A stretch of 64,000 bases of DNA from Candidatus Micrarchaeota archaeon (GCA_964392435.1 CAYMOY010000002.1:116479-180478), one strand, 5' to 3'; shown: positions 1,403-38,509, counted from the stretch's first letter. A program made the numbers and translations. Notes: generated from the letters alone by a model not told the origin.

Positions 1403-3043
1403 ATGCTGCAAAAGACATCTGCCAACCCGGGTGCTGCGCCTGCAACTAGCCGGACAGAAGCTCAGCCGAAAAACAGAAGCCTTTTTTTCTTCAGGCAGCT
1501 TGCTGGAGACAAGGCGGCCTTGCATGGCGCAAGTGCGGATTATGGCTACAGAAAACAGATGGGGGGCAGGGCAAAAAATTTCCTGTTCCTCCTTTTCAAG
1601 GAAGACAATTTTGATGCTGCGCAGGAGGCTTGCCGCAGGCTGATTGATGCTTCAAGGGAGAGCGAATATGTTGCGGCTGTCGAATTTGTTGATGAAAGCT
1701 TCAACAAATACCAGGCGGGCCGGGGGCTTCCACAAGGCAAGAGGGCAAAGGAGCGCCTTTTGCCTGACATCGGGCTCCTAGCATTAATGCACATGACAGA
1801 AAGGAACATTGCAAACGGAGCAAAGACAAAGGCGTTGGTAAGGAATTTCGAGTGGGTGATCAGCCGCGCAATGGGAATTGGAAGGGCTTCTGGGAACATC
1901 GCGCTGAAGTGGATGGAACGCATGGCTGGTTCAAGCCCCACTGATGCGATGCTTGAGGCTCTGCGCAGAGCTGCAGGCATACTGGAGAGTTATTTTTCAC
2001 AAAAACTTTACCTGGCAGCAGGCCAGGAGGATATCAAAAGCGCCTGCTGGTATGCAAGAAAGGCAAATACTGTTGCAGGAAAGGTAGGCGAGGCACAATA
2101 CGGTGCCATGGCAGATAGGATAGATTCAGCCTGCGAAGCTTTTTGCGATTCGAGGCGCCTGAGGGAAATAGGGCTGGAGCCGGATGAGGCGAGGGGCATA
2201 TTCGAAAACGAGATACCCGAGCTTAGGTTTTATTCCAAGAACCATATTTATTTCGCAAACATGAGACATGAGATAGATCTGGCCATGATGCAGGGAAACT
2301 ATACATTGGCACTGCATCTTTCAGATGAGGCTTTGAACAAGGCGGAGCTGATTGGAAGCGGTGCGCTGGCATATGAGTTCAGGATGGAGGCCCTGCATTG
2401 CAGGCTGCACGAGTGCCTGTTCAAGAAAGAAAGGAACGCTTTTTTTGGCGCTGCAAAAAAAATCCTGCCCGAAGGAATCGCCATGCGCCTGTTCAAGCCG
2501 GAAAATCTGCCGCAGGCAATAGAAGTGACCAAGGAGATTCTTTCCCTCGCAAGGAAAAACAATGCTCCGCTGCCGACATTTGTTCTGGAATGCTTTTTCA
2601 TCTTCGGGTATTCAAAAAACCGCGCAAGCAGCCTGCAGCCTGGCCAGGTGCGCAGAGCCGTGCTTCGGGCCATACCGGATTTCCCATCCAACCACAAGGC
2701 CGAGATGGAAAGGCTGGAAATTGAATGCCGACAAAAGCTGGATGCGGTGCTGATGAATGGCGACAGGGGCGGGCTTGCGGGGCCTGTGGGAATTGCGACA
2801 AAAATGATCGAGCTTTCTTATTTGTCGCCAACGCAGGTTTACGCAGCCAAGCGGCGCGCTGTCCGCACCCTGTTTGACAATTTTGCGGCAAGCTATGGGA
2901 AGCTCCATGGGGAGAAGGCTGCGAAAGATGACAATTACGTTTTGCAGAAAGTGCGCGAGGCGCTATCGAGCAATGTGCCCGACCTGTTTTTTGCCCAGCC
3001 CGATTTGGAAGCGGATGACGCGCCAGTTCAAGCAACCATTTAA
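1403..3043 (+). CDS. hypothetical alpha-helical protein (546 aa)
   Basis: Long uninterrupted ORF immediately upstream of and co-directional with the GT4 gene. No recognisable motif. Confidence 0.4.
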   Translation: MLQKTSANPGAAPATSRTEAQPKNRSLFFFRQLAGDKAALHGASADYGYRKQMGGRAKNFLFLLFKEDNFDAAQEACRRLIDASRESEYVAAVEFVDESFNKYQAGRGLPQGKRAKERLLPDIGLLALMHMTERNIANGAKTKALVRNFEWVISRAMGIGRASGNIALKWMERMAGSSPTDAMLEALRRAAGILESYFSQKLYLAAGQEDIKSACWYARKANTVAGKVGEAQYGAMADRIDSACEAFCDSRRLREIGLEPDEARGIFENEIPELRFYSKNHIYFANMRHEIDLAMMQGNYTLALHLSDEALNKAELIGSGALAYEFRMEALHCRLHECLFKKERNAFFGAAKKILPEGIAMRLFKPENLPQAIEVTKEILSLARKNNAPLPTFVLECFFIFGYSKNRASSLQPGQVRRAVLRAIPDFPSNHKAEMERLEIECRQKLDAVLMNGDRGGLAGPVGIATKMIELSYLSPTQVYAAKRRAVRTLFDNFAASYGKLHGEKAAKDDNYVLQKVREALSSNVPDLFFAQPDLEADDAPVQATI

Positions 3044-3069: not shown

Positions 3070-4188
3070 ATGAACATAGCGCTTTTCACAGACAGCTACC
3101 TGCCCACGCGGGACGGGGTGGTCTCTTCAATACTTGCATATAGGCAGGGGCTTGCCGCAAGCAATCACAGGATGCTGATTTTCGCCCCGGATTTGGAAGG
3201 CGCCAAAAAGGAGCCCGGCGTATTCAGGTATGCCTCGGTAAAATTCCCCCCTTATCCAGAGTATCAGGCAGCCATTTTCCCGCATGTCTCCTCCTCGCTT
3301 GCGAAAAAGATGGACATAAGGCTGGTGCATTGCAAGGCAATGACCACCATGGGGCTGTCGGCAGCCTGGTTCACCCGCAGAGCCGGCCTGCCTTCAATAG
3401 CCTCGCTGGAAACGATGATACCGGACGGGGTGCATTACATATTGCCAATAAGGCAGGCGCAAGGCATCGGAAAAGCAGCAGCTTGGGCTTACCTGCGCTT
3501 CTTGTACTCGAATTTCAACCTGGTCACCGCCCCTTCGCGACACATCCAGAAGCTGCTTGCCGAACACAGGGTGGAATCCGAACTTTTGCCCTCGCCTGTA
3601 GATACCGAACGGTTCAGGCCCATGCGCGGGGCAGATGAAGTTAAGAGGAAATTGGGGCTTCGGGGGAAAAAAGTGGTGCTTTCGGTTGGCAGGCTGGTTA
3701 GGGAGAAAAATTACTCTTTCCTGCTCCGGGTTGCCAAGAAGATGGAGGGACAGAACACTGTTTTCTTGCTGGTTGGCAAAGGGCCGTATCTTGAAGATTT
3801 GCGCAGGGAAGTGGCTTGCTCAGGACTTTCAGATGTGGTGCGCTTTGCCGGCTTTGTGCAAGACGAGGACATTGTAAGCCATTACAACGCGGCGGACGCG
3901 TTTTTCTTCCCCTCGCACTTTGAAACGCAGGGGCTCACGCTGCTTGAGGCTTTTGCCTGCGGCAAGCCAGCCTGTGTGCCTGAGGGCACGCCGATGTCGG
4001 AGAACATACGCGAGGGCAGGAATGGCTATACGTTTAGCGAGGATGACGGGGAATGCGCTGAAAAGCTGGCAAGATGCCTGCAAAGCAAGCGGAGCATGGC
4101 TGGGGCAGCCAGGGAAAGCGCGCTTGAATATTCCATACAAAAATGCACTGCCAGGCTTCTTGGGGTTTATCGGAGGGTCCTGGAGTGA
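3070..4188 (+). CDS. GT4-family glycosyltransferase
   Basis: N-terminal MNIALFTDSYLPTRDGV; C-terminal FFFPSHFETQGLTLLEAFACGKPACVPEG (E-x7-E GT4 signature). Confidence 0.7.
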   Translation: MNIALFTDSYLPTRDGVVSSILAYRQGLAASNHRMLIFAPDLEGAKKEPGVFRYASVKFPPYPEYQAAIFPHVSSSLAKKMDIRLVHCKAMTTMGLSAAWFTRRAGLPSIASLETMIPDGVHYILPIRQAQGIGKAAAWAYLRFLYSNFNLVTAPSRHIQKLLAEHRVESELLPSPVDTERFRPMRGADEVKRKLGLRGKKVVLSVGRLVREKNYSFLLRVAKKMEGQNTVFLLVGKGPYLEDLRREVACSGLSDVVRFAGFVQDEDIVSHYNAADAFFFPSHFETQGLTLLEAFACGKPACVPEGTPMSENIREGRNGYTFSEDDGECAEKLARCLQSKRSMAGAARESALEYSIQKCTARLLGVYRRVLE

Positions 4189-4293: not shown

Positions 4294-5109
4294 GTGCTAA
4301 TGATAGACTACAAGTATTTCGCATATGGGGCGGCAGCGCTTGGAGTGCTGGGCGCAATCGGCTCTTTTGTCAGCGGGGGCAACGCCATCTTCGGCTTCAT
4401 ATTCGGGCTGATGTGCCTCATAGGCTCAATCGGGGCAATCGCGTTTTACAAGTACGGCTACATACTGGTTCCGATGCTGACCCAGAGGGGCAATATCGTG
4501 CAAATCATGGAGGGCGGCTATGAAATACCCCCTTCCAACGACGTGGTGATAAAGAATGTTGGGGGGGCGTACTACGCCAGCAAATACCTCGGGGTGCGCG
4601 TTTACGAGTCTGCATCCGAGAAAACGGTTGAGGAAAACATGGTTTATTCGGAATATTTCGAGCGCGCAATTTCAGGAGTGAAATACGTGACCAAGTTCGC
4701 GATAATGGTCTATATGAAGGATATAAGCGACCACAGGAGCAGAATAGAGACCAAGCATGCCGAAGCACAGCTGCGCCTTGCGCGAGAGAGGGACAAGCCG
4801 GACCCAGATGTGCTCAAAATGGACCGGTACGAGAAAGAAGTTGCCATGTGGGAAAACCAGATAAACAAGCTGACGCGGGGCATCAAGCCCATGGGATTGG
4901 TCTCGTATGTAATGACCACGGCTGTCGGAGTGAGCAAGGAGGCGGCAACCGCGGCTGCCTCTGCGCAGGCAAACGAGCTGAAGGCAACTGTTGCAAATGC
5001 GCTGAATGTGCAGGTTGAAATCCTGTCAGGAGACGAAATGCTGCGCTGCTTCCAGTGGGAGGTCATGATCCCTCCGACTCCGCAGGAGCTGGAGCAGGCT
5101 GTCCTTTAA
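4294..5109 (+). CDS. membrane protein: two N-terminal TM helices plus ~190-aa soluble domain; first gene of the ATPase operon
   Basis: Hydrophobic segments AAALGVLGAIGSFV and IFGFIFGLMCLIGSIGAIAF. 82-nt gap to the ATPase gene. Confidence 0.5.
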   Translation: MLMIDYKYFAYGAAALGVLGAIGSFVSGGNAIFGFIFGLMCLIGSIGAIAFYKYGYILVPMLTQRGNIVQIMEGGYEIPPSNDVVIKNVGGAYYASKYLGVRVYESASEKTVEENMVYSEYFERAISGVKYVTKFAIMVYMKDISDHRSRIETKHAEAQLRLARERDKPDPDVLKMDRYEKEVAMWENQINKLTRGIKPMGLVSYVMTTAVGVSKEAATAAASAQANELKATVANALNVQVEILSGDEMLRCFQWEVMIPPTPQELEQAVL

Positions 5110-5191
5110 GGCTGCCTTGCGCCAAAAAAAGAGCCGGCAGGCGCAGATTGTGCGCAGGATTGTGGATTGCCCTTTGGAATGGTGTTGAGAA

Positions 5192-6811
5192 ATGGGAAGG
5201 CTGACGCTGTCGGAACTTGACAATGTGGATGTGGCGCGGCGCAACATATTCGTCAGGCCCCCTGAGCCGCCTGAAGAGGCGCTGATGGCGGATCCGACCA
5301 ATGCGATTTACATAGGCAGAACCAAGATATTCCATGTGCCTTTCTACTGGACTTTCCAGAAAACAACCAACCCGCACATCTGCGTGGTGGGAATCACAGG
5401 CTCAGGAAAATCCTATTTTGTCAAGACCTTCCTCACCCGCGCATCGTTTGTCTGGGGCACCAACGCGTTCATCATAGACTGGGCAGGGGAATACAAGGAT
5501 TGGGTGAAGCAGACCGGCGGCAAGGTAATCTCGCTTGGCCGCGGCTCGGCAATCAATCTGCTGGACACGGCGGGCATGAAGCCCAACGACCGCGTCAAGC
5601 AGGTGATGAGGACATTGGATGTGCTTACTGATATCGGCAGGTACCCCGAGCAGAAGAGGCTGACCGAGCTTGCGATAGAAAAGGCCTATGTTAACAGTAA
5701 ATTCAAGCTTGACTCCAAGCTGCAGGTTGATGGGCTTGGAAGGCAGCTTAAGCCCCCAACCCTCAAAGACGTGCAAAAGGTGCTGGAGGACATGAGCGAG
5801 GCGGGCTCTTACGAATTTCCCGCGGAGCTTGAAAACGCGATATACCGCATACGCCAATTCACGCGCGAAGGGGAGGATTTCTTCGCGCAGCAGTCCACAA
5901 TCGATTTGGAAAAATTGACCAAGGCTGGCTTGGTTGACCTGGACCTCTCCGGATTGCCAGATGAGACTTTCAGGGGGCTTGCCGCGCTTTCCATGCTGCA
6001 ATTCATAAAGGAAAAGATGCGCGAGGAGGGCTGGTCATCGACAAAAGGCCTCAAGCTTTTGGTGGTTTTGGACGAGGCGTGGAAGGTCGCCAAGGACGAC
6101 AATTCCGACGCAGTGATGATTGTGAGGGAGGGGCGTAAGTACCAGTTCGGGCTGATTGTCGCCTCTCAAAACCCGACAGACATATCCGAGGCGATATTCT
6201 CGAATGTGGGAACCACGTTCATACTTCGCGTCAAGTTCGAGCGTTTCCTAGATTATCTGCAGTCCACCCTGAATTTTTCGGACTACATGCGCGAGGGCAT
6301 TGCCAAGCTGGGGGTGGGGCAGGCGGCAGTCAACATGGCATTCCAGGCAACTGCCGATTACTCGGAAACCTTCCTAATTGAGAAGATAGAGGGGGAAGAG
6401 CCGATGCAGGAGTTCTTTTTGGACCTTGATTCGGTGCTTTCCCAGGAAGAGATGGCGATGGAAGGCGCGGTCCGCTCATTGTCGTTTGAAAAAGACGAAC
6501 TGAAAAAGAAGATGCGGGAGTTTGGGATGGGGGAGGAGCAGGGGGATGAAATTGTGGCGCTTTTCTCCAAAAAGGGCAGGCGATTGGGGATATCTTCGTT
6601 TGTGGTGCTGCTGCAGAGATATGGGATAGCGAGGAACAACATCGGCGGTTTTCTCAAGGAACTGGGCTTGGAGGACACCACCTTAGTTACTGTGCTCTCA
6701 AGCGCGGACGAGCTTTCAATAAAGCTTGGCGACCAGGACATAACCGAATACATTGTGAGCGAAGGCGAGCCAGAAACGCAGCCCCGCTCGCAAAGGCCCA
6801 GGGGAAGATGA
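5192..6811 (+). CDS. FtsK/HerA/VirB4-superfamily P-loop ATPase (VirB4/CedB-like, DUF87-type)
   Basis: Walker A VVGITGSGKSYFVKTF; Walker B LLVVLDEAWKV; downstream ASQNPTDISEAIFSNVGTTFILR resembling the VirB4/HerA Q/TQ...IFL motif. C-terminal ~80-aa domain repeated in next gene. Confidence 0.7.
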   Translation: MGRLTLSELDNVDVARRNIFVRPPEPPEEALMADPTNAIYIGRTKIFHVPFYWTFQKTTNPHICVVGITGSGKSYFVKTFLTRASFVWGTNAFIIDWAGEYKDWVKQTGGKVISLGRGSAINLLDTAGMKPNDRVKQVMRTLDVLTDIGRYPEQKRLTELAIEKAYVNSKFKLDSKLQVDGLGRQLKPPTLKDVQKVLEDMSEAGSYEFPAELENAIYRIRQFTREGEDFFAQQSTIDLEKLTKAGLVDLDLSGLPDETFRGLAALSMLQFIKEKMREEGWSSTKGLKLLVVLDEAWKVAKDDNSDAVMIVREGRKYQFGLIVASQNPTDISEAIFSNVGTTFILRVKFERFLDYLQSTLNFSDYMREGIAKLGVGQAAVNMAFQATADYSETFLIEKIEGEEPMQEFFLDLDSVLSQEEMAMEGAVRSLSFEKDELKKKMREFGMGEEQGDEIVALFSKKGRRLGISSFVVLLQRYGIARNNIGGFLKELGLEDTTLVTVLSSADELSIKLGDQDITEYIVSEGEPETQPRSQRPRGR

Positions 6812-6812
6812 A

Positions 6813-7109
6813 ATGGCGAAAACACTGTTCTTCTCAAAGGAGGAATTGGGCCGGAAGCTGCGCACTTTCGGCCTTGAGGAACTCCGGGTCGCAGACATAA
6901 CCACCGTGTTTGACCGGAACAACCACCACATAGACGTGGTCTCGTTCGTGATAATGCTGGAAAGATACGGGGTGCAGCGGCCCGATATTTCCTCCTTCCT
7001 CCACGACATAGGGGTGGACGAATCCACATTGATAAATATTTTTTCCAAGGCGGACTTCACCCGGATTGGAATGGGAAACCGCGAGATAACGCAGGTAGTG
7101 TTGGCTTAG
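6813..7109 (+). CDS. small protein homologous to the C-terminal domain of the preceding ATPase
   Basis: SFVIMLERYGVQRPDISSFLHDIGVDESTLINIFSKAD aligns with SFVVLLQRYGIARNNIGGFLKELGLEDTTLVTVLSSAD in the ATPase C-terminus (~35% identity). Start abuts ATPase stop. Confidence 0.5.
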   Translation: MAKTLFFSKEELGRKLRTFGLEELRVADITTVFDRNNHHIDVVSFVIMLERYGVQRPDISSFLHDIGVDESTLINIFSKADFTRIGMGNREITQVVLA

Positions 7110-7121
7110 GGAGATTTAGGG

Positions 7122-7532
7122 GTGTGTTTGATGGCAACCGTGTGCATAATATGCGAAAAGGAAACTGGCGGAAGGCGCGTGATGGACGACTTTGTCATAA
7201 GGGCCATAAGAAAAGTCAAGTCCGCCCTCAGGATTGCCAAGAACAACACCTTGGTGGTCTGCCCAGGATGCATTGAGACTTATGCCTCCAAGCGCACAAA
7301 ATACGAGCGCGACCTGGTGATGCACGCGATAGTGGGCGGTATGGTGCTTCTGCTTTTCGCGCTGCTGCCTATTTTCACAACCGGATTTTCGCTTTTGCCC
7401 ATATTGCTCGGGCTGATGCTCTTCGCGCTCATAATGGCACTGTCCGTTTTCTCGCACTGCCCCAAGTTGGAGGAGAAGCGGCAGGCCGATGAACCCGCGA
7501 GGAAAAATGCTAAGAAAGTGAAGAAAAAATGA
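7122..7532 (+). CDS. zinc-ribbon (CxxC...CxxC) protein with two TM helices
   Basis: CIICEKE...CPGCIE then hydrophobic GGMVLLLFALLPIF and LLPILLGLMLFALIMALSVF; Lys-rich C-terminus. Probable ATG at 7131. Confidence 0.45.
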   Translation: MCLMATVCIICEKETGGRRVMDDFVIRAIRKVKSALRIAKNNTLVVCPGCIETYASKRTKYERDLVMHAIVGGMVLLLFALLPIFTTGFSLLPILLGLMLFALIMALSVFSHCPKLEEKRQADEPARKNAKKVKKK

Positions 7533-7536
7533 TTGA

Positions 7537-8319
7537 GTGGTGTTTACCTTGGCAGACCAAAATCAGGCAAACTTTCCAGACGGCAGGGCAAAGCCCCAAG
7601 CTGCGCTTTCCAGCGAGCCCAAAGTGGGCGGATTTAGGCTGCAGGCAAAGAGGCTGAAAAGCCCGTCTGAGATATCCCAAAGGCTCTCCGAGCTTTCCTT
7701 CCTGGAAATGAGCATGGACAAAGACGTGCTTACCGCGCTTAATGTCGAATCGCGGGACATCCAGAAGAACCCTTACTTGTTTTCCATAATATATTTCAGG
7801 CCGACCATGGTGGAGGCGCTTTACTCCTGCCTTCCGAACATGAGCCCGAAAAAGAGGAGGATAGACGTGCTGAAGCACTGCCTGAACCTGATGACATTGG
7901 CGGAAGACTGCTATGATGTTGAAACCCGCCAAATATACCAGCTGGTCGAGGCTTCGGTGGCGGACATGACAGAGTATGTTTCTGCCGATTATGACCGACT
8001 CTTTGCGCTTTATGACAACCTCAAGACGGACTTTGCTGCGTTGCAGAAGAAATACAACGAAGCAAAGGATGCCAGCGGCTCGCTTTCCAAGGAGAACTAC
8101 GACCTGAAAAGCAAAAACGACGAGCTTACGCTGAGGCTCAAGTCGCTTGAGACCTTCTCGGACACGGTGCTTGCGCTCAAGATACAGGAATGGCTTTCCG
8201 AGCACAAGGGGGAGATAAACATCTCTGACTTTGCCAAGGTTTACAACGTGCCCGAGATGCGGGTGGAGCAAATGCTCAACAAGCTGGTGACCGAGGGTTA
8301 CCTTGAGACCAAGGGCTAG
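7537..8319 (+). CDS. coiled-coil protein with C-terminal winged-helix-like domain
   Basis: GTG start 4 nt after upstream stop (first ATG at 7708). Heptad-rich middle (LKTDFAALQKKYNEAKDASGSLSKENYDLKSKNDELTLRLKSLE); C-terminal DFAKVYNVPEMRVEQMLNKLVTEGYLETKG resembles a wHTH. Confidence 0.4.
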   Translation: MVFTLADQNQANFPDGRAKPQAALSSEPKVGGFRLQAKRLKSPSEISQRLSELSFLEMSMDKDVLTALNVESRDIQKNPYLFSIIYFRPTMVEALYSCLPNMSPKKRRIDVLKHCLNLMTLAEDCYDVETRQIYQLVEASVADMTEYVSADYDRLFALYDNLKTDFAALQKKYNEAKDASGSLSKENYDLKSKNDELTLRLKSLETFSDTVLALKIQEWLSEHKGEINISDFAKVYNVPEMRVEQMLNKLVTEGYLETKG

Positions 8320-8339
8320 CGCCCCTGCCGCGTGTTTGC

Positions 8340-10982
8340 ATGAGCGAGGACCAACAGACTCTCAAGCTCAAGATTGCCAAGAAGGCATACATATTCGATG
8401 TGAGGAAAAGATTTGCCGCAAGCCGCACCTTTGCAGTCAAAAAAGCCCCTGAAACGCCAGCAGAGGACCTCAAGGAGAAGCTCAAGAGCCTGCTGGAGAA
8501 AAAAAAGACGCCTCTTGACAGCGCTGCGCCTGGTGGAAATGGCGCCTTGCCAGGGCAAAAGCCAGCCTTGGATGCCCCCCGAGGCGTTGGAGCCGGCCTG
8601 ATTAAGATTGCGGCGATAACAGCTGCTTTGGTGATTTTCGGTTTTCTTGGCCTTTTGGCAATGCTGCCCCCTGGCGGGGGAAGCGGGCCGTTGCAGATTG
8701 TGCCTGCAGACCTGTTCACAGGTAGCCTCTCCTTTTCTGTTGATGAGGGCATGGTGCTGACCGTGGAGGGGGAGGATTCTGCGCAGCACGCAGGTTATTT
8801 TCTGCTTTCCTACCAGGCAGCCAACCTTTCCGACCTGAATTTCACCGCCAAGCTCTACTCGCAGCAGCCTCCGACCCAAGTTTTCATATTGGACTATCCG
8901 AAAGACAGCGGAAGCTCCTACCCTGTTTTCAAAAAATACCTTGTTTCCAACCTGGCCCGGCTTGGGATACCGACCAATGAGATAGAGATAGGCATGGTGG
9001 GCCGCCTGCCCGCCGGGGCAGTGCTTTTGATTCCCACCGGCTATTTCCCGAAAGAGCTTCTCGGGGTGGACAATGAATTCGACTACCAGGACCTGCTTGG
9101 CCGCGGCGTGACGATAATCTACATAGGGCTGCCGTTTGACAACCAGGCTCTTGGCAGAGACGGTCTTGCAGTACAGGTCAGCCACAAAAAGATTGCCTTT
9201 GACAAAAAAGCCCGCCCAAAGTCAACTGACGGGTTCGGGCTTTTCAACGCGCAATATTCTGCCGCACCTGCCCAGACATACGCGGAAAACACCCTTTTTG
9301 CCTCTCCGCCCATCTACGGATCGATATCGGTGGTGAGGTACAAAACCGGCTCCATGCTAATCCTCCCCCAGAGCCTTGATGGCGGATGGCGCGAGAGGGA
9401 CGTTTCAGGCGCCTGGAGCGAAAAGGGCGGGATTGCCGCGCAAGACGTGGCGCGGCTGATAGCTGAGGAGCCCTGGATGCAGGAAATTTCCTCGGCCAGA
9501 TCCGCCGCCCTTCTTGGCAGCAATAAAGAAGGCAGACTCTCTTTGTTCACAGGCAAATTCAGCGCCGAATCGGCTTTTGTGAAGCTTGCAGCAGATGCTG
9601 CGGACCAGGACGGCTCTTTTCAGCGCAGCCTTGAAGTCTTTCGGATTGAGAAGTCCCAGAGCGGGAAGATGGTGCCTTCCGAGCCGCAGGCTGTCCCTTA
9701 TTACCTTTCAGGCCAGCGAACACGACTGAATGTGGCGCTTCGGGAGAACAGCTCCGCGCAGGTCAAGCTATATGTGGAAATGTACAAGGACGGGAGGCTG
9801 CTCCAGCGAACCGACCTTGAGCCGGGGCTCACAACACCGACAACGGACAAATCGGTGGACATACAGGTGAATGCCGAGCCTGGCAATTATGTGGTGGTGG
9901 TCGCGGACGAGCAGGGAAAAATCTATGCCGCCTGCGAGCTTTCGGTGACCGACCTTAACATCGCAGTCAACCAGAGCAATTGGAACAAGGGCAGGTTTTC
10001 CTTCCTCCTCTCATCAGCAAACCAGCCGGTGGAGCCGCGCAGCCTGTCCATTTCTTTCGACGGGAAGGAAGAGGCGCGATATTCCCCCTCCTCCCTGCGC
10101 CCAGGAGTCAGCGCAACTGAGGTGGAGTATGTTTACCCGGGAAAGATAGAATCCGGCCCCCATGTTTTCCTATTTACTGTTGGGACTTACCAAAAGAGCC
10201 TGAGCCTTTCCTATGACCGAATCCCGCCTTTTTGGGAGAACCCGGTTTTCATCGTGCTGACCCTCCTTGCGGCGGGGATTGGAGCAATGGGAATGGCATT
10301 GCGCAGGCCTGATTCTGTCAGATACGGCCTGGACATACCCGACTTCCCGCCAATGTCGACCATAAAAATACCTGTGAAGCGCGAAACGGTTATGGAAATA
10401 TTCTCCTCGGTGAACAGCGGCTACGCATGGCAGCGCATGCCTCTGAGGTTAGATGAGATAAAAAACGGATTCCGGAAGCTGACTTACAACGGCAAGCCGA
10501 TTCTGGTGGGGGATTTCAACCTCGAGCGGATACTTTCCAAGCTGGCTGATGAAGGGCTGGTGAAAGAGGAGCTGGGCTACTTTGGCCTGACTAGCTGGGA
10601 AAAGGAAAGCAACCACTCCATACGCTATCTTGCCATATACCGGATTATGCGCAACGTGTTTGTGAACAATGCTGTTAAGTTCTCCAAGCTTGACGCAATG
10701 CAGGACTGCGACATGAAGGCAATCGCTGGGAACGAGGAGATTTATTTGCACATAATGGAGGAGCCGGAGGAAACCGTGGTGCACCGGGCGCTTGCAACTG
10801 CGAAAAAAGGCACCACCCTGATAATATTCAAGACCTCCGAGGAGAGGGACGAATTCCGCTCCTCGCTCACCTCCACCTCCAAGCTGGCAGTCGGCCTCAA
10901 GATGGAGGTGGATGGCGGCAGGATAATGCTTTTCAACGCGAAAAACGACGTTCAAGCCTACCTGAAGGGAATCAACAGGTGA
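8340..10982 (+). CDS. large bitopic membrane protein (880 aa): Lys-rich cytoplasmic N-term, TM, ~540-aa extracytoplasmic region, second TM, ~230-aa C-terminal domain
   Basis: TM1 LIKIAAITAALVIFGFLGLLAMLPP, TM2 NPVFIVLTLLAAGIGAMGMAL. Last gene of the co-directional cluster. Confidence 0.5.
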   Translation: MSEDQQTLKLKIAKKAYIFDVRKRFAASRTFAVKKAPETPAEDLKEKLKSLLEKKKTPLDSAAPGGNGALPGQKPALDAPRGVGAGLIKIAAITAALVIFGFLGLLAMLPPGGGSGPLQIVPADLFTGSLSFSVDEGMVLTVEGEDSAQHAGYFLLSYQAANLSDLNFTAKLYSQQPPTQVFILDYPKDSGSSYPVFKKYLVSNLARLGIPTNEIEIGMVGRLPAGAVLLIPTGYFPKELLGVDNEFDYQDLLGRGVTIIYIGLPFDNQALGRDGLAVQVSHKKIAFDKKARPKSTDGFGLFNAQYSAAPAQTYAENTLFASPPIYGSISVVRYKTGSMLILPQSLDGGWRERDVSGAWSEKGGIAAQDVARLIAEEPWMQEISSARSAALLGSNKEGRLSLFTGKFSAESAFVKLAADAADQDGSFQRSLEVFRIEKSQSGKMVPSEPQAVPYYLSGQRTRLNVALRENSSAQVKLYVEMYKDGRLLQRTDLEPGLTTPTTDKSVDIQVNAEPGNYVVVVADEQGKIYAACELSVTDLNIAVNQSNWNKGRFSFLLSSANQPVEPRSLSISFDGKEEARYSPSSLRPGVSATEVEYVYPGKIESGPHVFLFTVGTYQKSLSLSYDRIPPFWENPVFIVLTLLAAGIGAMGMALRRPDSVRYGLDIPDFPPMSTIKIPVKRETVMEIFSSVNSGYAWQRMPLRLDEIKNGFRKLTYNGKPILVGDFNLERILSKLADEGLVKEELGYFGLTSWEKESNHSIRYLAIYRIMRNVFVNNAVKFSKLDAMQDCDMKAIAGNEEIYLHIMEEPEETVVHRALATAKKGTTLIIFKTSEERDEFRSSLTSTSKLAVGLKMEVDGGRIMLFNAKNDVQAYLKGINR

Positions 10983-11012: not shown

Positions 11013-12233
11013 TTGCTTTTTTTCCGCCCTGAAGCGGAAAAGCTGATGCTTATGAGAGTCGCCATGCTCGGTTGGGAATTCCCCCCGTTTGTTTCCGGAG
11101 GATTGGGGACCCACTGCTACGAACTTACGCGCAAGCTTGCCGCGATTGGGGTGGAGATAGACTTTTTCATGCCAGTAAGCGGGAGCAATGCCGTTTCATC
11201 CATAAGCGGATTGCGGATAATCGAGGTTGCAAAGACAGAGCTTAAGCCCTATCTCTTTTTCTCAAAGGCAAAAAAGGGGCAAAGCCCGTCTTACGGGGAG
11301 AACCTGATAAGCGCGGTGGGCGAATATTCGCAGCACTGCACCGAGTCTGTTCTCTCTTATGCTAAGGAAAACCCCTACGACCTGATACACGCGCACGATT
11401 GGATGACTGCCAAGCCTGCGCATGAGGCGAAAGGGAAGCTGGGGCTGCCCCTTGTGCAGACTTTCCATTCCACGGAGTTTGACCGGACCAGCTGGCCCTG
11501 GGAGTACATACTGGGAATCGAGCGGCAGGCAGCGCAGGAAGCCAGCCTGATAATTGCGGTGAGCAGGAGGACCAAGTCGCAGGTGATGCGCCTGGGGGCG
11601 CAGGAAAGCAGGATACGCGTCATCTATAACGGCGTGGATTATGTAAGGTTCTCCTCCTCTTGCCTGCCGGCTTTTGCCAATGAGCTGAAAAAAAGCAGGA
11701 AAATAGTGCTTTTCCTGGGGAGGCTGACCGAGCAGAAAGGGCCTGTGCAGTTTTTGCACGCAGCGAAAAAAGTGCTTGCCAGAAAGCCAGACACCCTCTT
11801 TGTCATCGCCGGCAAGGGGGAGCTTTTGCCGCTTCTGATAAATATGTCTCTTGAGATGGGAATAAGCAAAAATGTGCGCTTCTTGGGCTATGTGCCAGAA
11901 GAGGAGCAGCGAAAGATATACAAGCTGGCAGACCTGTATGTCATGCCCTCAACCTCCGAACCTTTTGGAATAACCGCCCTGGAGGCGATGTCCTCAGGGG
12001 TGCCGGTCATAATTTCCAAAACCTCCGGGGTCGCGGAGGTTGTCAAATCCGCAATACAGGTGGACTTCTGGGACATAAACGCGATGGCTGAGAAAATTGT
12101 CGCGGTGCTGCATTACGCCCCTCTTTCCAGCGCAATGTCGCGCCTGTCATTAAAAGAGGCGGCGGCACACACTTGGGAAAAGGCAGCATCAGAAACGCTT
12201 GCGGTGTACAGAGAAGCCATTGCAAAGCGATAA
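11013..12233 (+). CDS. glycogen-synthase-like GT4/GT5 glycosyltransferase
   Basis: MRVAMLGWEFPPFVSGGLGTHCYEL (glycogen synthase-type N-term); EPFGITALEAMSSGVPVIISKTSG. Likely start near 11046-11052. Confidence 0.65.
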   Translation: MLFFRPEAEKLMLMRVAMLGWEFPPFVSGGLGTHCYELTRKLAAIGVEIDFFMPVSGSNAVSSISGLRIIEVAKTELKPYLFFSKAKKGQSPSYGENLISAVGEYSQHCTESVLSYAKENPYDLIHAHDWMTAKPAHEAKGKLGLPLVQTFHSTEFDRTSWPWEYILGIERQAAQEASLIIAVSRRTKSQVMRLGAQESRIRVIYNGVDYVRFSSSCLPAFANELKKSRKIVLFLGRLTEQKGPVQFLHAAKKVLARKPDTLFVIAGKGELLPLLINMSLEMGISKNVRFLGYVPEEEQRKIYKLADLYVMPSTSEPFGITALEAMSSGVPVIISKTSGVAEVVKSAIQVDFWDINAMAEKIVAVLHYAPLSSAMSRLSLKEAAAHTWEKAASETLAVYREAIAKR

Positions 12234-12297
12234 ATACGGGTGTCAACAGGAAAATAGCCTGCAGCCAAACAGCCATTTTGCGCTGCCGGATGTTGAA

Positions 12298-13482
12298 ATG
12301 ATGGAAATCTGCATTTACTTCCAGGTGCACCAGCCGCTTCGGCTTTCGCACTATTCGATTTTCGGGGAGGGCGCCTCGGAGGGCAGCGGAGGGTACTTTG
12401 ACAGCGCACTCAATTCCGAGATAATGCGCAAGGTGGCCGGGAAATGCTATCTGCCCGCCAACAAGGTGATGCTGGAGCTTCTGGAGGCAAACCCGGAATT
12501 CCACGTCAGCTATTCGCTGACAGGCGTTTTTCTTGAGCAGTGCTCGCTTTTTGCCCCTGAGGTGCTGGAAAGCTTCGCAGCCCTTGCGCGCACTGGGAGG
12601 GCGGAATTCCTATCAGAAACCTACCACCATTCGCTTTCTTATCTCTTTTCAGACAAGGACGAGTTTGTGGAGCAGATACGGCTCCACAGAGAGGCGATTT
12701 CGAAATTCGCCAAGCCCTCCAGCGTCTTTAGGAACACAGAGGCGATGTTCTCAAACGACATCGCATACCTTGTGGAGAGGCTTGGCTACAACGGGATAAT
12801 GGCAGAGGGCCTGGAGCACATACTGGGCTGGCGCTCCCCCAACTACCTTTACACCGTGAAGGGCTGCGAGAAGATAAAGGCGCTGCTGCGCCACTACAAG
12901 CTTTCCGATGACATCGGCTACCGCTTCTCCGCCAAATGGTGGAACGAATACCCGCTGACCGCGGAAAAGTACGCCCGCTGGCTCTCCGAGCTGCAGGGGG
13001 ACTGCGTCAATATTTTCATGGACTATGAGACTTTCGGAGAGCACCACTGGGCGGATACCGGCATATTCGAGTTTTTGCGCCACCTTCCAGCCCAGATAGG
13101 CAAGATGCGGCATCTGCGCTTTTCCACCCCCTCGCAGCTGGTTGAGCGCGTTGCCGCGCGCGATGACATAGACGCGCCGCAGGTCACTTCATGGGCAGAC
13201 ATGGAAAGGGACACCTCGGCTTGGCTGGGCAATGAGATGCAGCGCACAGCCTTTTCGCTCCTGGAGTCGCTTGGGAAAAAGGTCAGGGAAACGAAAGACG
13301 AGGGGGCTCTGCGCACCTGGCGCATGCTTGGCAACTCCGACCATTTCTACTACATGTGCACCAAGTCGCTGTCAGACCAGGACGTGCACAACTATTTCTC
13401 GCCTTATGACTCGCCTTTTGACGCCTACATAAACTACATGAACGTGCTTAATGAATTTAGGGAAAAAGTGGAAAAGATGTAG
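12298..13482 (+). CDS. GH57-family glycoside hydrolase (alpha-glucan processing)
   Basis: MMEICIYFQVHQPLRL (GH57-type start), ...DYETFGEHHW; adjacent to glycogen-synthase-like gene. ORF-track start 12199 is probably an N-terminal over-extension. Confidence 0.6.
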   Translation: MMEICIYFQVHQPLRLSHYSIFGEGASEGSGGYFDSALNSEIMRKVAGKCYLPANKVMLELLEANPEFHVSYSLTGVFLEQCSLFAPEVLESFAALARTGRAEFLSETYHHSLSYLFSDKDEFVEQIRLHREAISKFAKPSSVFRNTEAMFSNDIAYLVERLGYNGIMAEGLEHILGWRSPNYLYTVKGCEKIKALLRHYKLSDDIGYRFSAKWWNEYPLTAEKYARWLSELQGDCVNIFMDYETFGEHHWADTGIFEFLRHLPAQIGKMRHLRFSTPSQLVERVAARDDIDAPQVTSWADMERDTSAWLGNEMQRTAFSLLESLGKKVRETKDEGALRTWRMLGNSDHFYYMCTKSLSDQDVHNYFSPYDSPFDAYINYMNVLNEFREKVEKM

Positions 13483-13544: not shown

Positions 13545-14591
13545 TTAGCCAGTCGAGTAGTCGTCTTCCAGGTTGTCCAGGCTGATGGATTCCATTGACC
13601 TGTTTGCGGTCAGCTGCATGGAAATCTTTTTTTGCGAAATATTGAGCAGTATGCCTGCCCGCGCGCCGCCCTCGGGAATGTTGATTGCGAAGGTGCCCAG
13701 CCGGTATTCACCCTGCGCAAGATTCGCCCCGACCTCGATTGTTACGTTGGGGGCGGCTCCCCTAGGCGAGTTGGAATCTAAGTCGACTCGCACCACGTCG
13801 TGGGCGGGAAACCGCAGGTCCAAAAGAATTTGATTGAGCCTCAAGCCTGCCTCATTGCAAAGCCTTATGGCCTGCCATTTCTGCGCTTTAGAAGAAAGGC
13901 GCAAGACATCTTGCTCAAGACCGATGTTAAATGCTGCCTTTTTTGCATAATAGCCGCCTTCTGCCCTGCTGTAGTGCACCTGAATTGAGCCGATATGCGG
14001 ATTGCCCCCCCCACCCTCAGGAATAAAAGTTTCGGCTATGTGGAACGTGCCGACTATCTTGCCCCCCTCGTTTTCGCCATAGTAGACAATGGGCAGTATT
14101 TCCTTGTTCCCCTTGAAAGACTGTACCGCCAGAAGCGAGCCGAACGGAAGGAAATCCGCGCAGAAGCTGTTCATCGCCTCAATCTGAGCGGGCGAGAATC
14201 CGAACTTGATTGCGAAGGAGACCGGGGATATGTCAGACTCCTGCCTCATCGCCTCATCCACCATGACAAGCTCGGTTTTCTCAGCCATGGCTTTCAGCCT
14301 CTGTATCAGATGGTAAGGCTCGGAATCCGCCCGGTCTTCGATAAGCCTGAGAAGGGAGAGGGCCTCGCGCTCCAGCTTGAATGAATATGCAAGGGCATTG
14401 TCCATCTGTTCCTTGGAGGGCTTGCAAAGAAGGATTGATTTCCCGTCTGCAAGGGGCGTTTGGCGCAAAAATGAACCGAGCTGGGACCTGAGCCGCTGGG
14501 CTGCGCCAGGGGAAGTTTGGTCGCTGCTGGAAATCCTTGCGAAAATTTCGCGCGCTTGGCGCACGCATAATGAGCCGGAGCTGTTTGCCAT
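13545..14591 (-). CDS. hypothetical protein, divergent from AAA ATPase gene
   Basis: Long ORF; start taken at MANSSGS (14591). Shares an AT-rich divergent promoter region (14600-14700) with the AAA gene. Confidence 0.4.
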   Translation of the reverse strand: MANSSGSLCVRQAREIFARISSSDQTSPGAAQRLRSQLGSFLRQTPLADGKSILLCKPSKEQMDNALAYSFKLEREALSLLRLIEDRADSEPYHLIQRLKAMAEKTELVMVDEAMRQESDISPVSFAIKFGFSPAQIEAMNSFCADFLPFGSLLAVQSFKGNKEILPIVYYGENEGGKIVGTFHIAETFIPEGGGGNPHIGSIQVHYSRAEGGYYAKKAAFNIGLEQDVLRLSSKAQKWQAIRLCNEAGLRLNQILLDLRFPAHDVVRVDLDSNSPRGAAPNVTIEVGANLAQGEYRLGTFAINIPEGGARAGILLNISQKKISMQLTANRSMESISLDNLEDDYSTG

Positions 14592-14670
14592 GCTTCCTTT
14601 CAGCTGCAAAGGGTTTATAAATATATTATAAACCACTTATTACAACATTCTCTTCCATTGCCTAATAGTC

Positions 14671-14681
14671 AAATATATAAG
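14671..14681 (+). promoter_or_regulatory. TATA-box-like element (aaatatataag) ~22 bp upstream of AAA ATPase ATG; implies leaderless transcript
   Basis: AT-rich hexamer island in otherwise GC-rich DNA, spacing typical of archaeal TATA-to-TSS. Confidence 0.35.
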
Positions 14682-14702
14682 ATACCTGCGCGTTTTTCCT
14701 GC

Positions 14703-32929: not shown

Positions 32930-33886
32930 CTATTTTTTCCCAAGCCGGTAAGGCTCGCTGATGCCTGTGAATATGATTATTGCCTCCATCCTTTTCTCAA
33001 AGCCCTCTTCCATCCTTGCGCCCCAGATTACATTGGCTTGCGGGTCCACGTTTTGGGTGAGAAGCTCGCCAGCCCTGTTCGCATCGCCCAAGGTCAAATC
33101 AGAGCCCCCGGTCATATGCAACAGCACCCCTCTGGCGCCAGAGGTGTCGATGTCCAGCAGCCTGTTTTTCAGAACAGTGTTTGGAAGTTCTTCCACCCTG
33201 TCATAACCCGAGGCGGCCCCGACGCAGATTGCCGAAATGCCGCCCTTTCCTGCGATTGCCCTTAAGTCCATGTAATCCAGGTTGATGAGTGAGGGCTCCA
33301 GCAGGGTTTTTGAAATCCCCAACACCGCCTTCGCTATTATTTCGTCAAGCAATTCAAACGACTTTTCGATAGGCAGCTTGCCCGCATAGTCAACGAGGCG
33401 GTTGTTGTCGATAAGCACCAGCGTGTCTGCAATCCCTTTTAGCTTGGCTATCCCCTCGCGCGCTTTGCCCATCCTGCCCCGCTCAAGCGCGAAGGGATAG
33501 GTGCAAAACGCTATTGTGACCGCGCCTTTTTCCCGTGCAATCTGGGCAACCACTGGCGAGGCGCCAGTGCCAGTGCCGCCCCCCATGCCGCAGGTGATGA
33601 AAACAATGTCCTTGCCATCCAGAAGCTCGGCAATGGAGCGCCTGGATGAGAGCGCCGCCTTTTCAGCCATTTGGGGGTAGCCCCCGGCACCAAGCCCGCG
33701 CGTTATGCTGGAGCCTATCAGGCACCTTTTTGCCCCCTGTGCAACCAGATTAAGGTGCTTCTTGTCCGTGTTTACCGCAACAAGCTCTGCGTTGGAAACA
33801 CCCATGCGTATAAGCCTGTTTATTGTGTTGCAGCCCGCGCCGCCCACCCCGAAGACAGCAATTGTAGGCCTGCCTTGCTCATCCAT
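32930..33886 (-). CDS. ftsZ: cell-division GTPase FtsZ
   Basis: [17 protein letters not shown], tubulin signature [16 protein letters not shown]. Confidence 0.85.
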
Positions 33887-36785: not shown

Positions 36786-36823
36786 TTTTATTGGTTTAGG
36801 TCAAAATGATAGAAGGTGAGAAT

Positions 36824-37156
36824 ATGCGGAACGGTTTTTTGCTATTCATATTTGTGCTGGCCCTCTCCGCAACCTCATGCGCCACTATGCTTGGCAGCGT
36901 GCAGGATGCGGTCTCCCAGCTTTGCCTCAACCTCAAAAGCCTAATTCCAGTGGTTGCGATGATGATGCTGGTGTTGGGCGGGGTAATCTATGCAGCCGGG
37001 CAGATGATGGGGGCTGAGACGCGCGCAAGGGCGAATGTGTGGGCGACTGCCTGCCTGACAGGCGCGCTGATTGCGATACTGATTGTCGTCGTGGCGCAGC
37101 CGGTGCTGCAGACAATATACGGCGACCTTGGCACCATTTCATGCGATGTGGCTTAG
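36824..37156 (+). CDS. pilin-like small secreted two-helix membrane protein, paralog 1 (VirB2/TrbC-like topology)
   Basis: Signal peptide MRNGFLLFIFVLALSATSCA; conserved core KSLIPVVAMMMLVLGGVIYAAGQMMGAETRARANVWATACLTGALIAILIVVVAQPVL; SD aggtga. Confidence 0.6.
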   Translation: MRNGFLLFIFVLALSATSCATMLGSVQDAVSQLCLNLKSLIPVVAMMMLVLGGVIYAAGQMMGAETRARANVWATACLTGALIAILIVVVAQPVLQTIYGDLGTISCDVA

Positions 37157-37202
37157 ATTTGTTTAAATTTCTTTTCTGAGAATAAGAGAAAGGAGGGATT
37201 TG

Positions 37203-37544
37203 ATGGGGAAATTGGCAGTATTGCTTGCGTTTGCGGTTGTTGGCGGCATGTTGTTTGCCACAGTGAACCCGCTTTCCAATGTTAATGAGGCTGTAAACAC
37301 ACTTTGCAAAGGCTTGAAGAGCCTGCTTCCGATTGCCGCAATGATGGCAATAGTGCTTGCCGGCGTGATTTATGCTGCGGGGCAGATGATGGGCGCTGAG
37401 ACACGCGCAAGGGCGAACGTCTGGGCGACTGCCGCACTGACAGGCGCGCTGATTGCGATACTGATGGCTGTGGTTGCGCCTGCCGTTCTGGGAATGATAT
37501 ATGGCAGCAGCTGGAGCACCGGAGTAAGCAGTTGCATTGCTTGA
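37203..37544 (+). CDS. pilin-like small secreted two-helix membrane protein, paralog 2
   Basis: MGKLAVLLAFAVVGGMLFA signal; same core; SD aggaggg. Confidence 0.6.
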   Translation: MGKLAVLLAFAVVGGMLFATVNPLSNVNEAVNTLCKGLKSLLPIAAMMAIVLAGVIYAAGQMMGAETRARANVWATAALTGALIAILMAVVAPAVLGMIYGSSWSTGVSSCIA

Positions 37545-37635
37545 TTTTTTTCCTCATTTTTCTTTTTTCCAAATACCCCTTAGTTTAAAATGTTTATTCT
37601 CGAATAGGCATCAACAGTACTTTAGGAGGGATTTG

Positions 37636-37959
37636 ATGGGGAAAATAACGGTATTGCTTGCGTTTGCGGTTGTTGGCGGCATGTTGTTTGCCACAACGCC
37701 TCTGGACAATGTCAATTCTGCGGTGAGCAGCCTTTGCAGTGGCTTGAAGAGCCTGCTTCCGGTTGCTGCCATGATGGCAATAGTGCTTGCAGGTGTCATC
37801 TATGCGGCAGGGCAGATGATGGGGGCTGAGACGCGCGCAAGGGCGAATGTGTGGGCTACTGCCGCGCTGACTGGTGCGCTGATTGCGATACTGATGGCTG
37901 TGGTTGCGCCTGCCGTTCTAAACACAATATACGGAACGCAAGGAACTATCCAATGCTGA
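37636..37959 (+). CDS. pilin-like small secreted two-helix membrane protein, paralog 3
   Basis: MGKITVLLAFAVVGGMLFA; near-identical core and upstream region to paralog 2; SD aggaggg. Confidence 0.6.
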   Translation: MGKITVLLAFAVVGGMLFATTPLDNVNSAVSSLCSGLKSLLPVAAMMAIVLAGVIYAAGQMMGAETRARANVWATAALTGALIAILMAVVAPAVLNTIYGTQGTIQC

Positions 37960-38038
37960 GTTTTTTTCTCATTTTTCTTTTTTCCAAATACCCCTTAGTT
38001 TAAAATGTTTGCCGGAAAATTTCCATAAGGTGATTGCG

Positions 38039-38509
38039 ATGGGATTTGCACGGTCCATTTCGGTTTTCTTGCTCGTTTTGCCCTTGGCTTTTGCATCAGG
38101 CACGCCGCTTGCTTCGGTGAATCAGGCGGTTTCCTCTCTTTGCAGCGGGCTAAACTCCCTTCTCCCGGTTGCCGCCATGATGGCAATAGTGCTTGGTGGG
38201 GTCATCTATGCTGCCGGGCAGATGATGGGGGCTGAGACGCGCGCACGCGCCAATGTATGGGCAACCGCCTGCCTGACAGGGGCAATAATCGCAATAATGA
38301 TTGCAGTTGTCGGGCCGGCTGTTCTCAAGATGATGTATGGGCAGGAGCTAGCGTGCGGGGGCAGCAGCCAACCGCCCACAGGCTGCCAGGCAGGATATTC
38401 GGCCTGCGGAACAGGGGGGCTTTGCTGCGGCGGGTCAACCCCGAAATGCTGCAACCCATCTAGCGCCCCAAGCTGTGCGAGTAATAACGCACTGTGCACC
38501 ATATCTTGA
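38039..38509 (+). CDS. pilin-like paralog 4 with Cys/Gly/Ser-rich C-terminal extension
   Basis: MGFARSISVFLLVLPLAFASG signal; same core; tail GGSSQPPTGCQAGYSACGTGGLCCGGSTPKCCNPSSAPSCASNNALC. Confidence 0.55.
   Translation: MGFARSISVFLLVLPLAFASGTPLASVNQAVSSLCSGLNSLLPVAAMMAIVLGGVIYAAGQMMGAETRARANVWATACLTGAIIAIMIAVVGPAVLKMMYGQELACGGSSQPPTGCQAGYSACGTGGLCCGGSTPKCCNPSSAPSCASNNALCTIS

Follow-up and report, generated by a model that had tools for sequence, protein, structure and literature searches.

By what means DPANN archaea hold on to their hosts and obtain what they need from them is a long-standing question, and a six-gene operon of a Candidatus Micrarchaeota archaeon raises it at the level of genes. 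The operon (g1 to g6; Table 1) lies in a stretch of 64,000 nucleotides (GCA_964392435.1, CAYMOY010000002.1:116479-180478), which we call the window and from whose first letter positions are counted. An earlier note, made from the sequence alone, had read the operon as a candidate secretion or DNA-transfer machine built around an ATPase of the VirB4/HerA type. Is it such a machine and, if so, of which kind? We consider it likely that Micrarchaeota have on their chromosome a machine derived from the type IV secretion systems (T4SSs) of conjugation, whose motor and membrane anchor are encoded by this operon. The machine would be related to the archaeal Ced and Ted systems and correspond in function to the relaxase-less T4SS of Patescibacteria. 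Because nearly all Micrarchaeota keep the operon on the chromosome, the machine is, by analogy, a strong candidate for the means of connection to a host cell.

Cryogenic electron microscopy has revealed pilus-like links between ARMAN cells and Thermoplasmatales, and the genomes of Micrarchaeota show heavy gene exchange with their hosts (PMC5498576). The locus supplies a concrete, phylum-wide gene set with which to approach the question: a VirB4-like motor with its anchor, the pilins, a polytopic protein and four accessories peculiar to the system. To our knowledge, machinery has been assigned neither to the pilus-like links nor to the gene exchange. Three Micrarchaeota co-cultures exist (Mia14, Ca. 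Micrarchaeum harzensis and ARM-1).

The ATPase and Its Membrane Anchor

All six open reading frames (ORFs) were confirmed on the plus strand as the tightly spaced, co-directional set that the earlier note had described, with intergenic gaps of 82, 1, 12, 4 and 20 nt. The product of g2 carries the motifs expected from its proposed placement in the FtsK/HerA/VirB4 superfamily, with Walker A (GITGSGKS) at residues 67-74, Walker B (LVVLDEAWK) at about 291-298 and REGRKY at 312-317; since all three are intact and invariant in an alignment spanning 35-100% identity, the enzyme is presumably active. In Pfam it matched DUF87 (the HerA central domain, which passed the threshold), AAA_10 and the TraG P-loop. 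Its best NCBIfam matches were CedD (E = 1e-21, 77 bits) and CedB (1.5e-21), followed by the VirB4/TraC families, with the HerA families weaker. Among PDB structures, the C-terminal domain of VirB4 (4ag5) covered residues 59-324, together with DptH, which aligned over roughly 40-326; HerA structures covered only residues ~235-374, the C-terminal half from Walker B to the arginine finger. By sequence, g2 is best classed as a VirB4/CedB-type ATPase and not as a CedB orthologue.

We considered whether the operon could instead be a defence or repair module of HerA type, be it against phages or for DNA repair (the HerA-NurA, HerA-SIR2/DUF4297 or DndH/DptH kind). The PADLOC models for HerA, DndH and mad8 matched the ATPase with E-values of 4e-20 to 1e-15, the PDB matches included defence HerA proteins besides DptH, and some public records call homologues "HerA". 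These matches, however, were limited to the shared P-loop core. Because Walker A begins at residue 67, g2 has no space for a HAS-barrel, and HerA itself was rejected as an identity for g2. Family scans found no NurA-like gene in the operon, in agreement with the earlier exclusion of a HerA-NurA repair pair, nor a SIR2 or nuclease partner; the five non-ATPase proteins gave no above-threshold match to a Pfam, NCBIfam or PADLOC family and no relevant PADLOC match of any kind. The distribution of the operon, phylum-wide and syntenic across 56 loci (see below), is not the patchy one of such modules, and we give this explanation almost no credence.

The tail of the ATPase occurs twice in the operon. 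The g3 product aligned with residues 428-523 of g2 at 34% identity (BLASTP, E = 2e-23), and is thus a genuine paralogue of the ATPase tail, the free-standing copy that had been described before.

The most informative component is g1. A hydropathy scan placed its N-terminal hydrophobic hairpin at residues ~9-49, consistent with the two-helix membrane protein predicted for this gene; as the public gene model has 269 aa, the true start is probably the ATG at 4300. In an exhaustive homologue search, we found relatives of the ATPase that are 690-1,070 aa long and whose ATPase domain starts near residue 280. By inspection, seven of these fused proteins (P0316, P0323, P0326, P0327, P0357, P0330 and P0372) begin with hydrophobic helices followed by a domain of ~200 aa. 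The profile of g1 aligned with these fused N termini from end to end over 228 columns (hhalign probability 91.7%, E = 7.6e-7), and its hidden Markov model (HMM) matched the fused ATPase P0327 directly (E = 8.5e-7). The fused ATPases P0316 and P0327 (~880-913 aa) in turn matched the NCBIfam CedB profile from positions ~72-75 to its end at 587 (E = 7e-42). The gene of P0327 lies directly downstream of two genes of the Pfam CedA1 family, which identifies P0327 as the CedB of a Ced-like locus. The profile evidence thus indicates that g1 is homologous to the membrane-anchor N terminus of fused CedB-like ATPases, and from this match g1 and g2 together appear to be a split CedB/VirB4, a VirB3/VirB4-like unit in which the hairpin of g1 would stand in place of VirB3.

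The C-terminal ~250 aa of six fused ATPases (P0316, P0323, P0326, P0327, P0357 and P0372) resembled, on inspection only, a winged helix and a restriction-endonuclease-like domain, and the nuclease-like region shows a motif of the form ...D-x(n)-EVET. For these C termini and the similar cytoplasmic domain of g6, hhalign gave a probability of 5%, and homology was not shown.

Conservation and Distribution of the Operon

To place the operon among its relatives, we scanned one genome per species with the ATPase and retained the best 80 of 522 genome matches; HMMs built from each of the six genes were run against all ORFs of the fetched loci. An operon with the same gene order, which we call type A, was present in 56 Micrarchaeota loci. 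Among the 47 type A loci with at least 5.5 kb of downstream sequence, g5 and g6 were present in all, g4 in 45 and g3 in 29, so that g3 is not peculiar to this genome; g1 was found in 51 of 51 loci with sufficient upstream sequence, and in 29 it occurs as a tandem duplicate. The recovery of an ordered set by HMMs in 56 independent loci is far beyond chance. In this comparison of gene neighbourhoods, which the earlier note had suggested as a check, the flanking membrane genes were co-conserved with the ATPase.

Two further operon classes were found. In type B the ATPase is ~41% identical to g2, and only g1, g2 and g5 are present, with g4 absent; type B often shares a genome with type A (L021 with L064; L009 with L069), and no type B copy lies in the window. 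A third class, found in locus L088, has an ATPase of ~29% identity. All 17 loci of type B or other classes contained g5, which is thereby the sole accessory common to all operon classes. Many genomes hold two or three paralogous operons. In the third class (L088:9403-13952, GCA_027351675.1) a pilin gene and a polytopic-protein gene precede g1, g2 and g5, and downstream lie uncharacterised genes of 329, 67, 98 and 788 aa, which may be analogues of g3, g4 and g6 too diverged for the HMMs.

Homologues of g2 number more than 1,100. The best 120 are 63-100% identical, and their named sources are Micrarchaeota (the closest being Anstonellaceae) or "uncultured archaeon". The best 80 loci are likewise nearly all from Micrarchaeota, and under 34% identity the next matches are those of 26-30% in Methanosarcinales, Patescibacteria and actinobacteria. 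The labels "Marsarchaeota" and "Acidoferrales bacterium" on distant relatives of the ATPase may be binning errors.

The neighbours of the operon vary between genomes and are housekeeping genes, among them those for eRF1, Lon, topoisomerase, PGK, DNA polymerase B and Phe-tRNA synthetase. The operon belongs to the chromosome and is inherited vertically; it is not a mobile element. A conjugative plasmid or element that has integrated here and transfers itself with an archaeal T4SS of the MPF-FATA type would account for a VirB4-like ATPase together with VirB2-like pilins, and elsewhere the window does hold an IS200 TnpA, an integrase adjacent to tRNA-Leu and a low-GC stretch at 40-42 kb. Yet neither a relaxase nor a coupling protein (VirD4) turned up in the operon, in its flanks or among the further large ORFs scanned, no integrase or att boundary adjoined the operon, and no genes of mobile-element type flanked it; GC content is even over the operon region, and the flanks differ between genomes while the order and sequence of the operon are conserved phylum-wide. 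An element of this kind is extremely unlikely.

Conservation differed strongly among the six proteins. Over 39 species loci, the median identity to the protein in the window was 62% for g2, 45% for g1, 43% for g5, 32% for g4, 30% for g3 and 27% for g6. Conserved cytoplasmic parts combined with a fast-diverging g6 form the pattern expected of an interaction surface.

Pilins and Polytopic Membrane Proteins

The products of four tandem genes at 36.8-38.5 kb all have a signal peptide and a pair of hydrophobic helices with a basic loop between them. The family that they form with their counterparts in the other loci (A5) matched Pfam T4SS_pilin in 17 of 23 members (best E = 3e-6) and TrbC/VirB2 in 8 of 23 (best E = 1.4e-6), and the best PDB match of its profile was the R388 pilin TrwL (8s6h, E = 0.008); compared with a CedA1-family protein, the profile gave no significant match. 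By sequence, the four genes are assigned to the VirB2/TrbC-type pilin family. Genes of this family immediately precede g1, with the same orientation, in L015, L019, L027, L055, L059, L071, L080 and L083 and in the type B locus L068, and they are found 7-8 kb upstream of g1 in L024, L026 and L029. That pilins adjoin g1 in at least eight other Micrarchaeota loci supports the surmise of the earlier note that the distant pilins of the window belong with the operon. The array begins 138 nt downstream of a tRNA-Ser(GCT) at 36583-36668, and the Cys/Gly/Ser-rich extension of the fourth pilin, ~50 residues long, is absent from the other three.

Between the pilins and g1 of L024, L026 and L029 stand co-directional paralogous membrane proteins with 5-8 predicted helices. 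An HMM of this polytopic family was run on 40 type A loci with 9 kb or more of upstream sequence and found arrays of 5-7 copies in 20, all of which have tandem g1. A single copy directly upstream of g1 was found in L055, L088 and six type B loci. In relatives the core order that recurs is therefore pilin, polytopic protein, g1, g2 and g5; it mirrors the order VirB2, VirB6, VirB4 of Ced and Ted, with the polytopic protein in the place of VirB6. The presence of six differing paralogues next to a presumably hexameric ATPase suggests that they form a hetero-hexameric channel. The N terminus of the polytopic proteins resembled the pilins only weakly (E = 3.7e-4, probability 36%). The arrays typically hold six copies (5-7) in a row, as at L024:528-8336, L026:2164-8348 and upstream of g1 in L030-L045 (e.g., L036:951-8255), and the family shares the motifs WAKxExYQ and LPxGxxxRxFPxxRxxGG; neither Pfam nor the PDB gave a match to it.

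Accessory Proteins

In g4, described earlier as a zinc-ribbon membrane protein, we recovered both the CxxC...CxxC pattern and the hydrophobic C-terminal half, with a hydrophobic segment at residues 91-109 and a further stretch preceding it in a hydropathy scan. Its cysteines are conserved among 57 homologues to different degrees (C8 in 56, C11 in 46, C47 in 48 and C50 in 34), and it matched CxxC zinc-finger families weakly.

The predicted make-up of g5 as a coiled-coil and winged-helix protein likewise held, with an N-terminal domain preceding the coiled coil. The best PDB match of its profile was the winged helix of CdvB (2xvc, E = 2e-4), Pfam EAP30/Vps36 (ESCRT-II) matched 6 of 22 family members (best E = 3e-5), and the coiled coil yielded ZapB-like matches. 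These resemblances bear on another explanation, in which the operon encodes a housekeeping DNA pump like FtsK or HerA that serves chromosome segregation or division, with g1 as its anchor and g5 recruiting it. The membership of the ATPase in the FtsK-HerA superfamily and the unusually high, phylum-wide conservation of the operon in a chromosomal housekeeping setting would fit such a pump, as would the closeness of the g5 winged helix to CdvB and ESCRT-II and its ZapB-like coiled coil. Pfam FtsK_SpoIIIE (PF01580), however, reached only 21.1 bits on g2 against a cut-off of 24 and covered no more than P-loop residues 55-82, whereas the ATPase aligned best with CedB, CedD and VirB4, and g1 with the N termini of the CedB type. 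Pilin and polytopic genes adjoin the operon in many genomes, two or three paralogous operons per genome are common, and the organism has an FtsZ of its own (Tubulin/FtsZ GTPase and FtsZ_C domains; 32930-33886, minus strand) and thus divides with FtsZ. We regard the pump as very unlikely.

For g6, a hydropathy scan placed membrane helices at residues 90-108 and 636-654, enclosing ~527 residues, close to the ~540 given in the earlier account of an 880-aa bitopic protein with a large extracytoplasmic domain. Its cytoplasmic domain of ~225 aa shows a winged helix and a nuclease-like fold, and within the protein the cytoplasmic ends are conserved while the ectodomain is variable.

A Probable Relative of Ced and Ted

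The ATPase type, the homology of g1, the pilins and the co-conservation of the partners together support what the earlier note had proposed, a minimal archaeal transfer machine resembling Ced and Ted that is neither a canonical T4SS nor a HerA-NurA pair. We infer hexamer formation, pilus assembly, the roles of g3 to g6, the substrate and the direction of transport in the following scheme. The hairpin of g1 would insert in the membrane, and its cytoplasmic domain would dock g2 there, so that the two polypeptides reproduce the architecture of VirB3 plus VirB4, or of single-chain CedB. The motor g2, presumably hexameric, would use ATP to extract VirB2-like pilins from the membrane and polymerise them, and it may also push substrate through the resulting conduit. 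The pilins would form an extracellular filament or conduit and the polytopic protein, where present, a channel, with g3, g4 and g5 as lineage-specific adaptors or regulators on the cytoplasmic face. In g6, a rapidly diverging surface domain, which may be where the cell wall or the host is contacted, would be joined to a winged-helix and nuclease-like domain that could bind or process nucleic acid. By analogy, the most likely job of the machine is to provide a contact filament or channel to a host cell through which a macromolecule is moved, and this macromolecule would most probably be DNA. Conservation of the cytoplasmic parts, rapid divergence of the surface protein and the presence of several pilin paralogues are in keeping with an interface under host-driven selection.

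Several points weigh against this reading. The g2 protein scored far under the cut-offs of the CedB, CedD and VirB4 families (77 bits against 600-700), and the defence-type HerA and DndH models matched it about as well. Structural matches of g1 to TrwK/VirB4, obtained with two programs, were weak and stood amid helical noise. In this genome the pilin genes lie 26 kb from the operon, and by themselves the copies of the window barely register against T4SS_pilin (E at the 0.05 level). No VirB6- or CedA-like polytopic protein was found in the operon, whose proteins have at most two membrane helices, or elsewhere in the window; the HMM of the polytopic family found no member in the 64 kb, and the family itself showed no similarity to VirB6, TrbL or CedA when compared with Pfam, the PDB and a CedA-like protein. 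The filament, the substrate and the host dependence of the system are drawn by analogy from its genes.

A simpler machine would assemble a pilus and do nothing else: an adhesive VirB2-like filament would tether the cell to a host or biofilm, with g6 as its base or adhesin and nothing translocated. VirB4 is the pilus-biogenesis ATPase of T4SSs (PMC12102498), the pilins are in tandem divergent arrays, the g6 ectodomain evolves fast, and a coupling ATPase and a relaxase are both missing from the operon, its flanks and the large ORFs scanned, all as one would expect of such a filament. Yet DNA is translocated by Ced and Ted, the closest relatives to have been characterised in archaea (PMC9905601, PMC11823120), adhesion in Micrarchaeota is already served by archaeal type IV pili (PMC5498576), and the winged helices of g5 and g6, the latter with its nuclease-like fold, are hard to explain in a purely adhesive structure. 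We therefore judge a pilus without transport to be plausible but rather unlikely and retain the Ced/Ted-related machine as the better reading.

A bolder version of the latter, which we hold to be possible though doubtful, sees in the machine what the essential Patescibacterial T4SS would be in DPANN. A conjugation machine would have been independently domesticated by ultrasmall archaeal episymbionts, would build the pilus-like or tubular connection observed between ARMAN/Micrarchaeota and their Thermoplasmatales hosts and would take up host DNA or other macromolecules via a channel of unprecedented architecture, made of the split VirB4, g4-g5-g6 and, in some lineages, a ring of six polytopic paralogues.

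Comparison with Known Systems

The Ced and Ted systems consist of a VirB4-like ATPase (CedB or TedB), a VirB6-like protein with 6-7 transmembrane helices (CedA or TedA), a VirB2-like protein (CedA1 or TedC) and a VirD4-like ATPase (CedD or TedD). Found in Sulfolobales (Ced) and Thermoproteales (Ted), they are T4SS derivatives that import DNA (PMC9905601, PMC11823120). Like them, the Micrarchaeota system is an archaeal, chromosomal and relaxase-less T4SS derivative. The top curated families of its ATPase are CedD and CedB, its anchor is homologous to part of a CedB-like ATPase encoded beside CedA1-family genes, its VirB2-type pilins are genomically linked to the ATPase, and relatives have a polytopic protein between pilin and ATPase. 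It differs in that the ATPase is split into the anchor g1 and the motor g2, with scores far under the equivalog cut-offs, and in that the pilins match T4SS_pilin/TrbC and not CedA1. The polytopic family has no detectable CedA/VirB6 similarity and no member in the window, a second, CedD-like ATPase was not seen, and the four extra conserved components g3-g6 have no Ced or Ted counterpart. Unlike Ced and Ted, the system is retained throughout a whole phylum of DPANN, and a genome often has two or three paralogous copies of the operon. A relationship of this kind would extend T4SS-derived systems from Thermoproteota to DPANN.

The second comparison is with the Patescibacteria (CPR), whose relaxase-less T4SS has tandem VirB2 arrays and is essential for epibiotic growth; its parts are VirB4, PrgI/VirB3, VirB6, TrsD and the VirB2 arrays (PMC12102498). 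Both systems belong to an ultrasmall, host-dependent lineage and are chromosomal, nearly universal in their phylum and without relaxase. Both have tandem divergent pilins of the T4SS_pilin type, VirB3-like and VirB4 functions on separate polypeptides and a presumed role in host interaction. The hosts of Micrarchaeota, in contrast, are archaea. The closest relatives of the ATPase are archaeal and CedB-like, not MPF-FATA, with Patescibacterial matches at 27-30% identity at most; g1 has a full extra domain beyond its hairpin, TrsD/VirB8 equivalents were not recognised among the proteins of the system, and g4, g5 and g6 are unique to it. The parallel with the essential Patescibacterial T4SS would suggest that two ultrasmall radiations converged on conjugation machinery.

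The arrangement of anchor and motor can also be set beside the VirB3-VirB4 pair of R388 (TrwM-TrwK), where a two-helix membrane protein and an N-terminal domain likewise anchor a hexameric VirB4 motor, matched in g2 by 4ag5. TrwK was also the main nontrivial structural match of g1, though weak. The break between the polypeptides, however, separates the N-terminal domain from the ATPase domain and not VirB3 from VirB4; g2 has, unlike VirB4, an extra C-terminal domain, duplicated as g3; and in contrast to conjugative T4SSs, the operon has neither an outer-membrane core nor VirB6/8/10, VirD4 or a relaxase. With HerA, the system shares the FtsK-HerA P-loop superfamily and a Pfam DUF87 match above threshold. 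It differs from HerA in lacking a HAS-barrel and a NurA or effector partner, and in being membrane-anchored via g1. The naturally split VirB4 and its new partners offer material for structural work on a minimal T4SS.

Automated annotation already names individual homologues "CedB", "HerA" or "VirB4". We found no literature description of the Micrarchaeota system in a search of incomplete coverage, so that an earlier account is possible. Papers on Micrarchaeota genomes list type IV pili, Sec and Tat, with T4SS-like machinery not among them, and the operon is not listed in the 2019 "dark matter" review. Nor is it identical with the "novel secretion system" that Makarova et al. 2015 predicted in archaea (arCOG01314, MoxR, vWA). 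What sets the present one apart is the split ATPase, the four novel conserved partners and the phylum-wide retention in a DPANN lineage.

Genomic Setting and Other Features of the Window

The operon is flanked by genes for carbohydrate-active enzymes, and the GT4 and glycogen synthase/GH57 genes named by the earlier note were all recovered (Table 1).

Table 1. Operon genes, flanking genes and pilin genes in the window
Feature	Position	Strand	Description
g1, membrane anchor	4294..5109	+	271 aa; N-terminal two-helix hairpin, then ~200-aa cytoplasmic alpha/beta domain
g2, VirB4/CedB-like P-loop ATPase (FtsK-HerA superfamily)	5192..6811	+	539 aa; ~95-aa C-terminal helical domain (428-523)
g3, free-standing paralogue of the ATPase C-terminal domain	6813..7109	+	98 aa; by BLASTP to g2
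g4, small membrane protein	7122..7532	+	136 aa; N-terminal cytoplasmic zinc-ribbon-like CxxC...CxxC, hydrophobic C-terminal half
g5, soluble protein	7537..8319	+	260 aa; N-terminal domain, coiled coil ~150-205, C-terminal winged helix ~210-260
g6, two-pass membrane protein	8340..10982	+	880 aa; basic cytoplasmic N-terminal tail, ~527-aa extracytoplasmic multi-domain region, ~225-aa cytoplasmic domain
GT4 glycosyltransferase	3070-4188	+	Flank, just upstream of g1
GT4/glycogen-synthase-like gene	11013-12233		Downstream flank
GH57 enzyme	12199-13482		Downstream flank
VirB2/TrbC-like pilin paralogue 1	36806..37156	+	Signal peptide, two hydrophobic helices, basic loop; own T4SS_pilin E = 0.053
VirB2/TrbC-like pilin paralogue 2	37200..37544	+	61-68% identical to neighbouring copies
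VirB2/TrbC-like pilin paralogue 3	37537..37959	+	Likely start is an internal ATG near 37636
VirB2/TrbC-like pilin paralogue 4	38009..38509	+	Cys/Gly/Ser-rich C-terminal extension

A GT4 gene homologous to the one upstream of g1 recurs ~0-2.5 kb from the end of g6 in 17 distinct type A loci (L002 repeats the place found in L001), usually on the strand opposite to the operon (L001:13405-14547, L015:6755-7897, L019:15303-16439, L051:14920-16059 and others). It may serve the glycosylation of the g6 ectodomain or the pilins, or reflect mere conserved synteny.

A few kilobases downstream of the operon, the plus strand encodes a 927-aa double-AAA ATPase resembling Cdc48, with an end of the Vps4_C type (14658-17441), and a 918-aa S-layer-like protein (19075-21831). 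Large ORFs at 1403-3043, 13545-14636, 17538-18668, 22183-24285 and 29082-31064 had no family match.

The low-GC block at 40-42 kb (GC 0.43 against ~0.54) contains two ORFs on the minus strand at 40023-41444, of which one, of 274 aa and for a LAGLIDADG homing endonuclease, lies directly downstream of the other, a truncated ORF of 193 aa resembling a tyrosine recombinase. The latter gave a weak Phage_integrase match and ends abruptly, as if an intein or a mobile endonuclease had broken into a recombinase gene; the region could equally be an insertion of foreign DNA. Adjoining the block is an IS200-like Y1 transposase TnpA (42389-42865, plus strand; Pfam Y1_Tnp, E = 5.6e-27). A full-length tyrosine integrase (52748-53956, minus strand; Phage_integrase, E = 3e-19) lies 139 nt from a tRNA-Leu(TAA) at 54095-54179 on the same strand, a site that is a candidate boundary of an integrated element.

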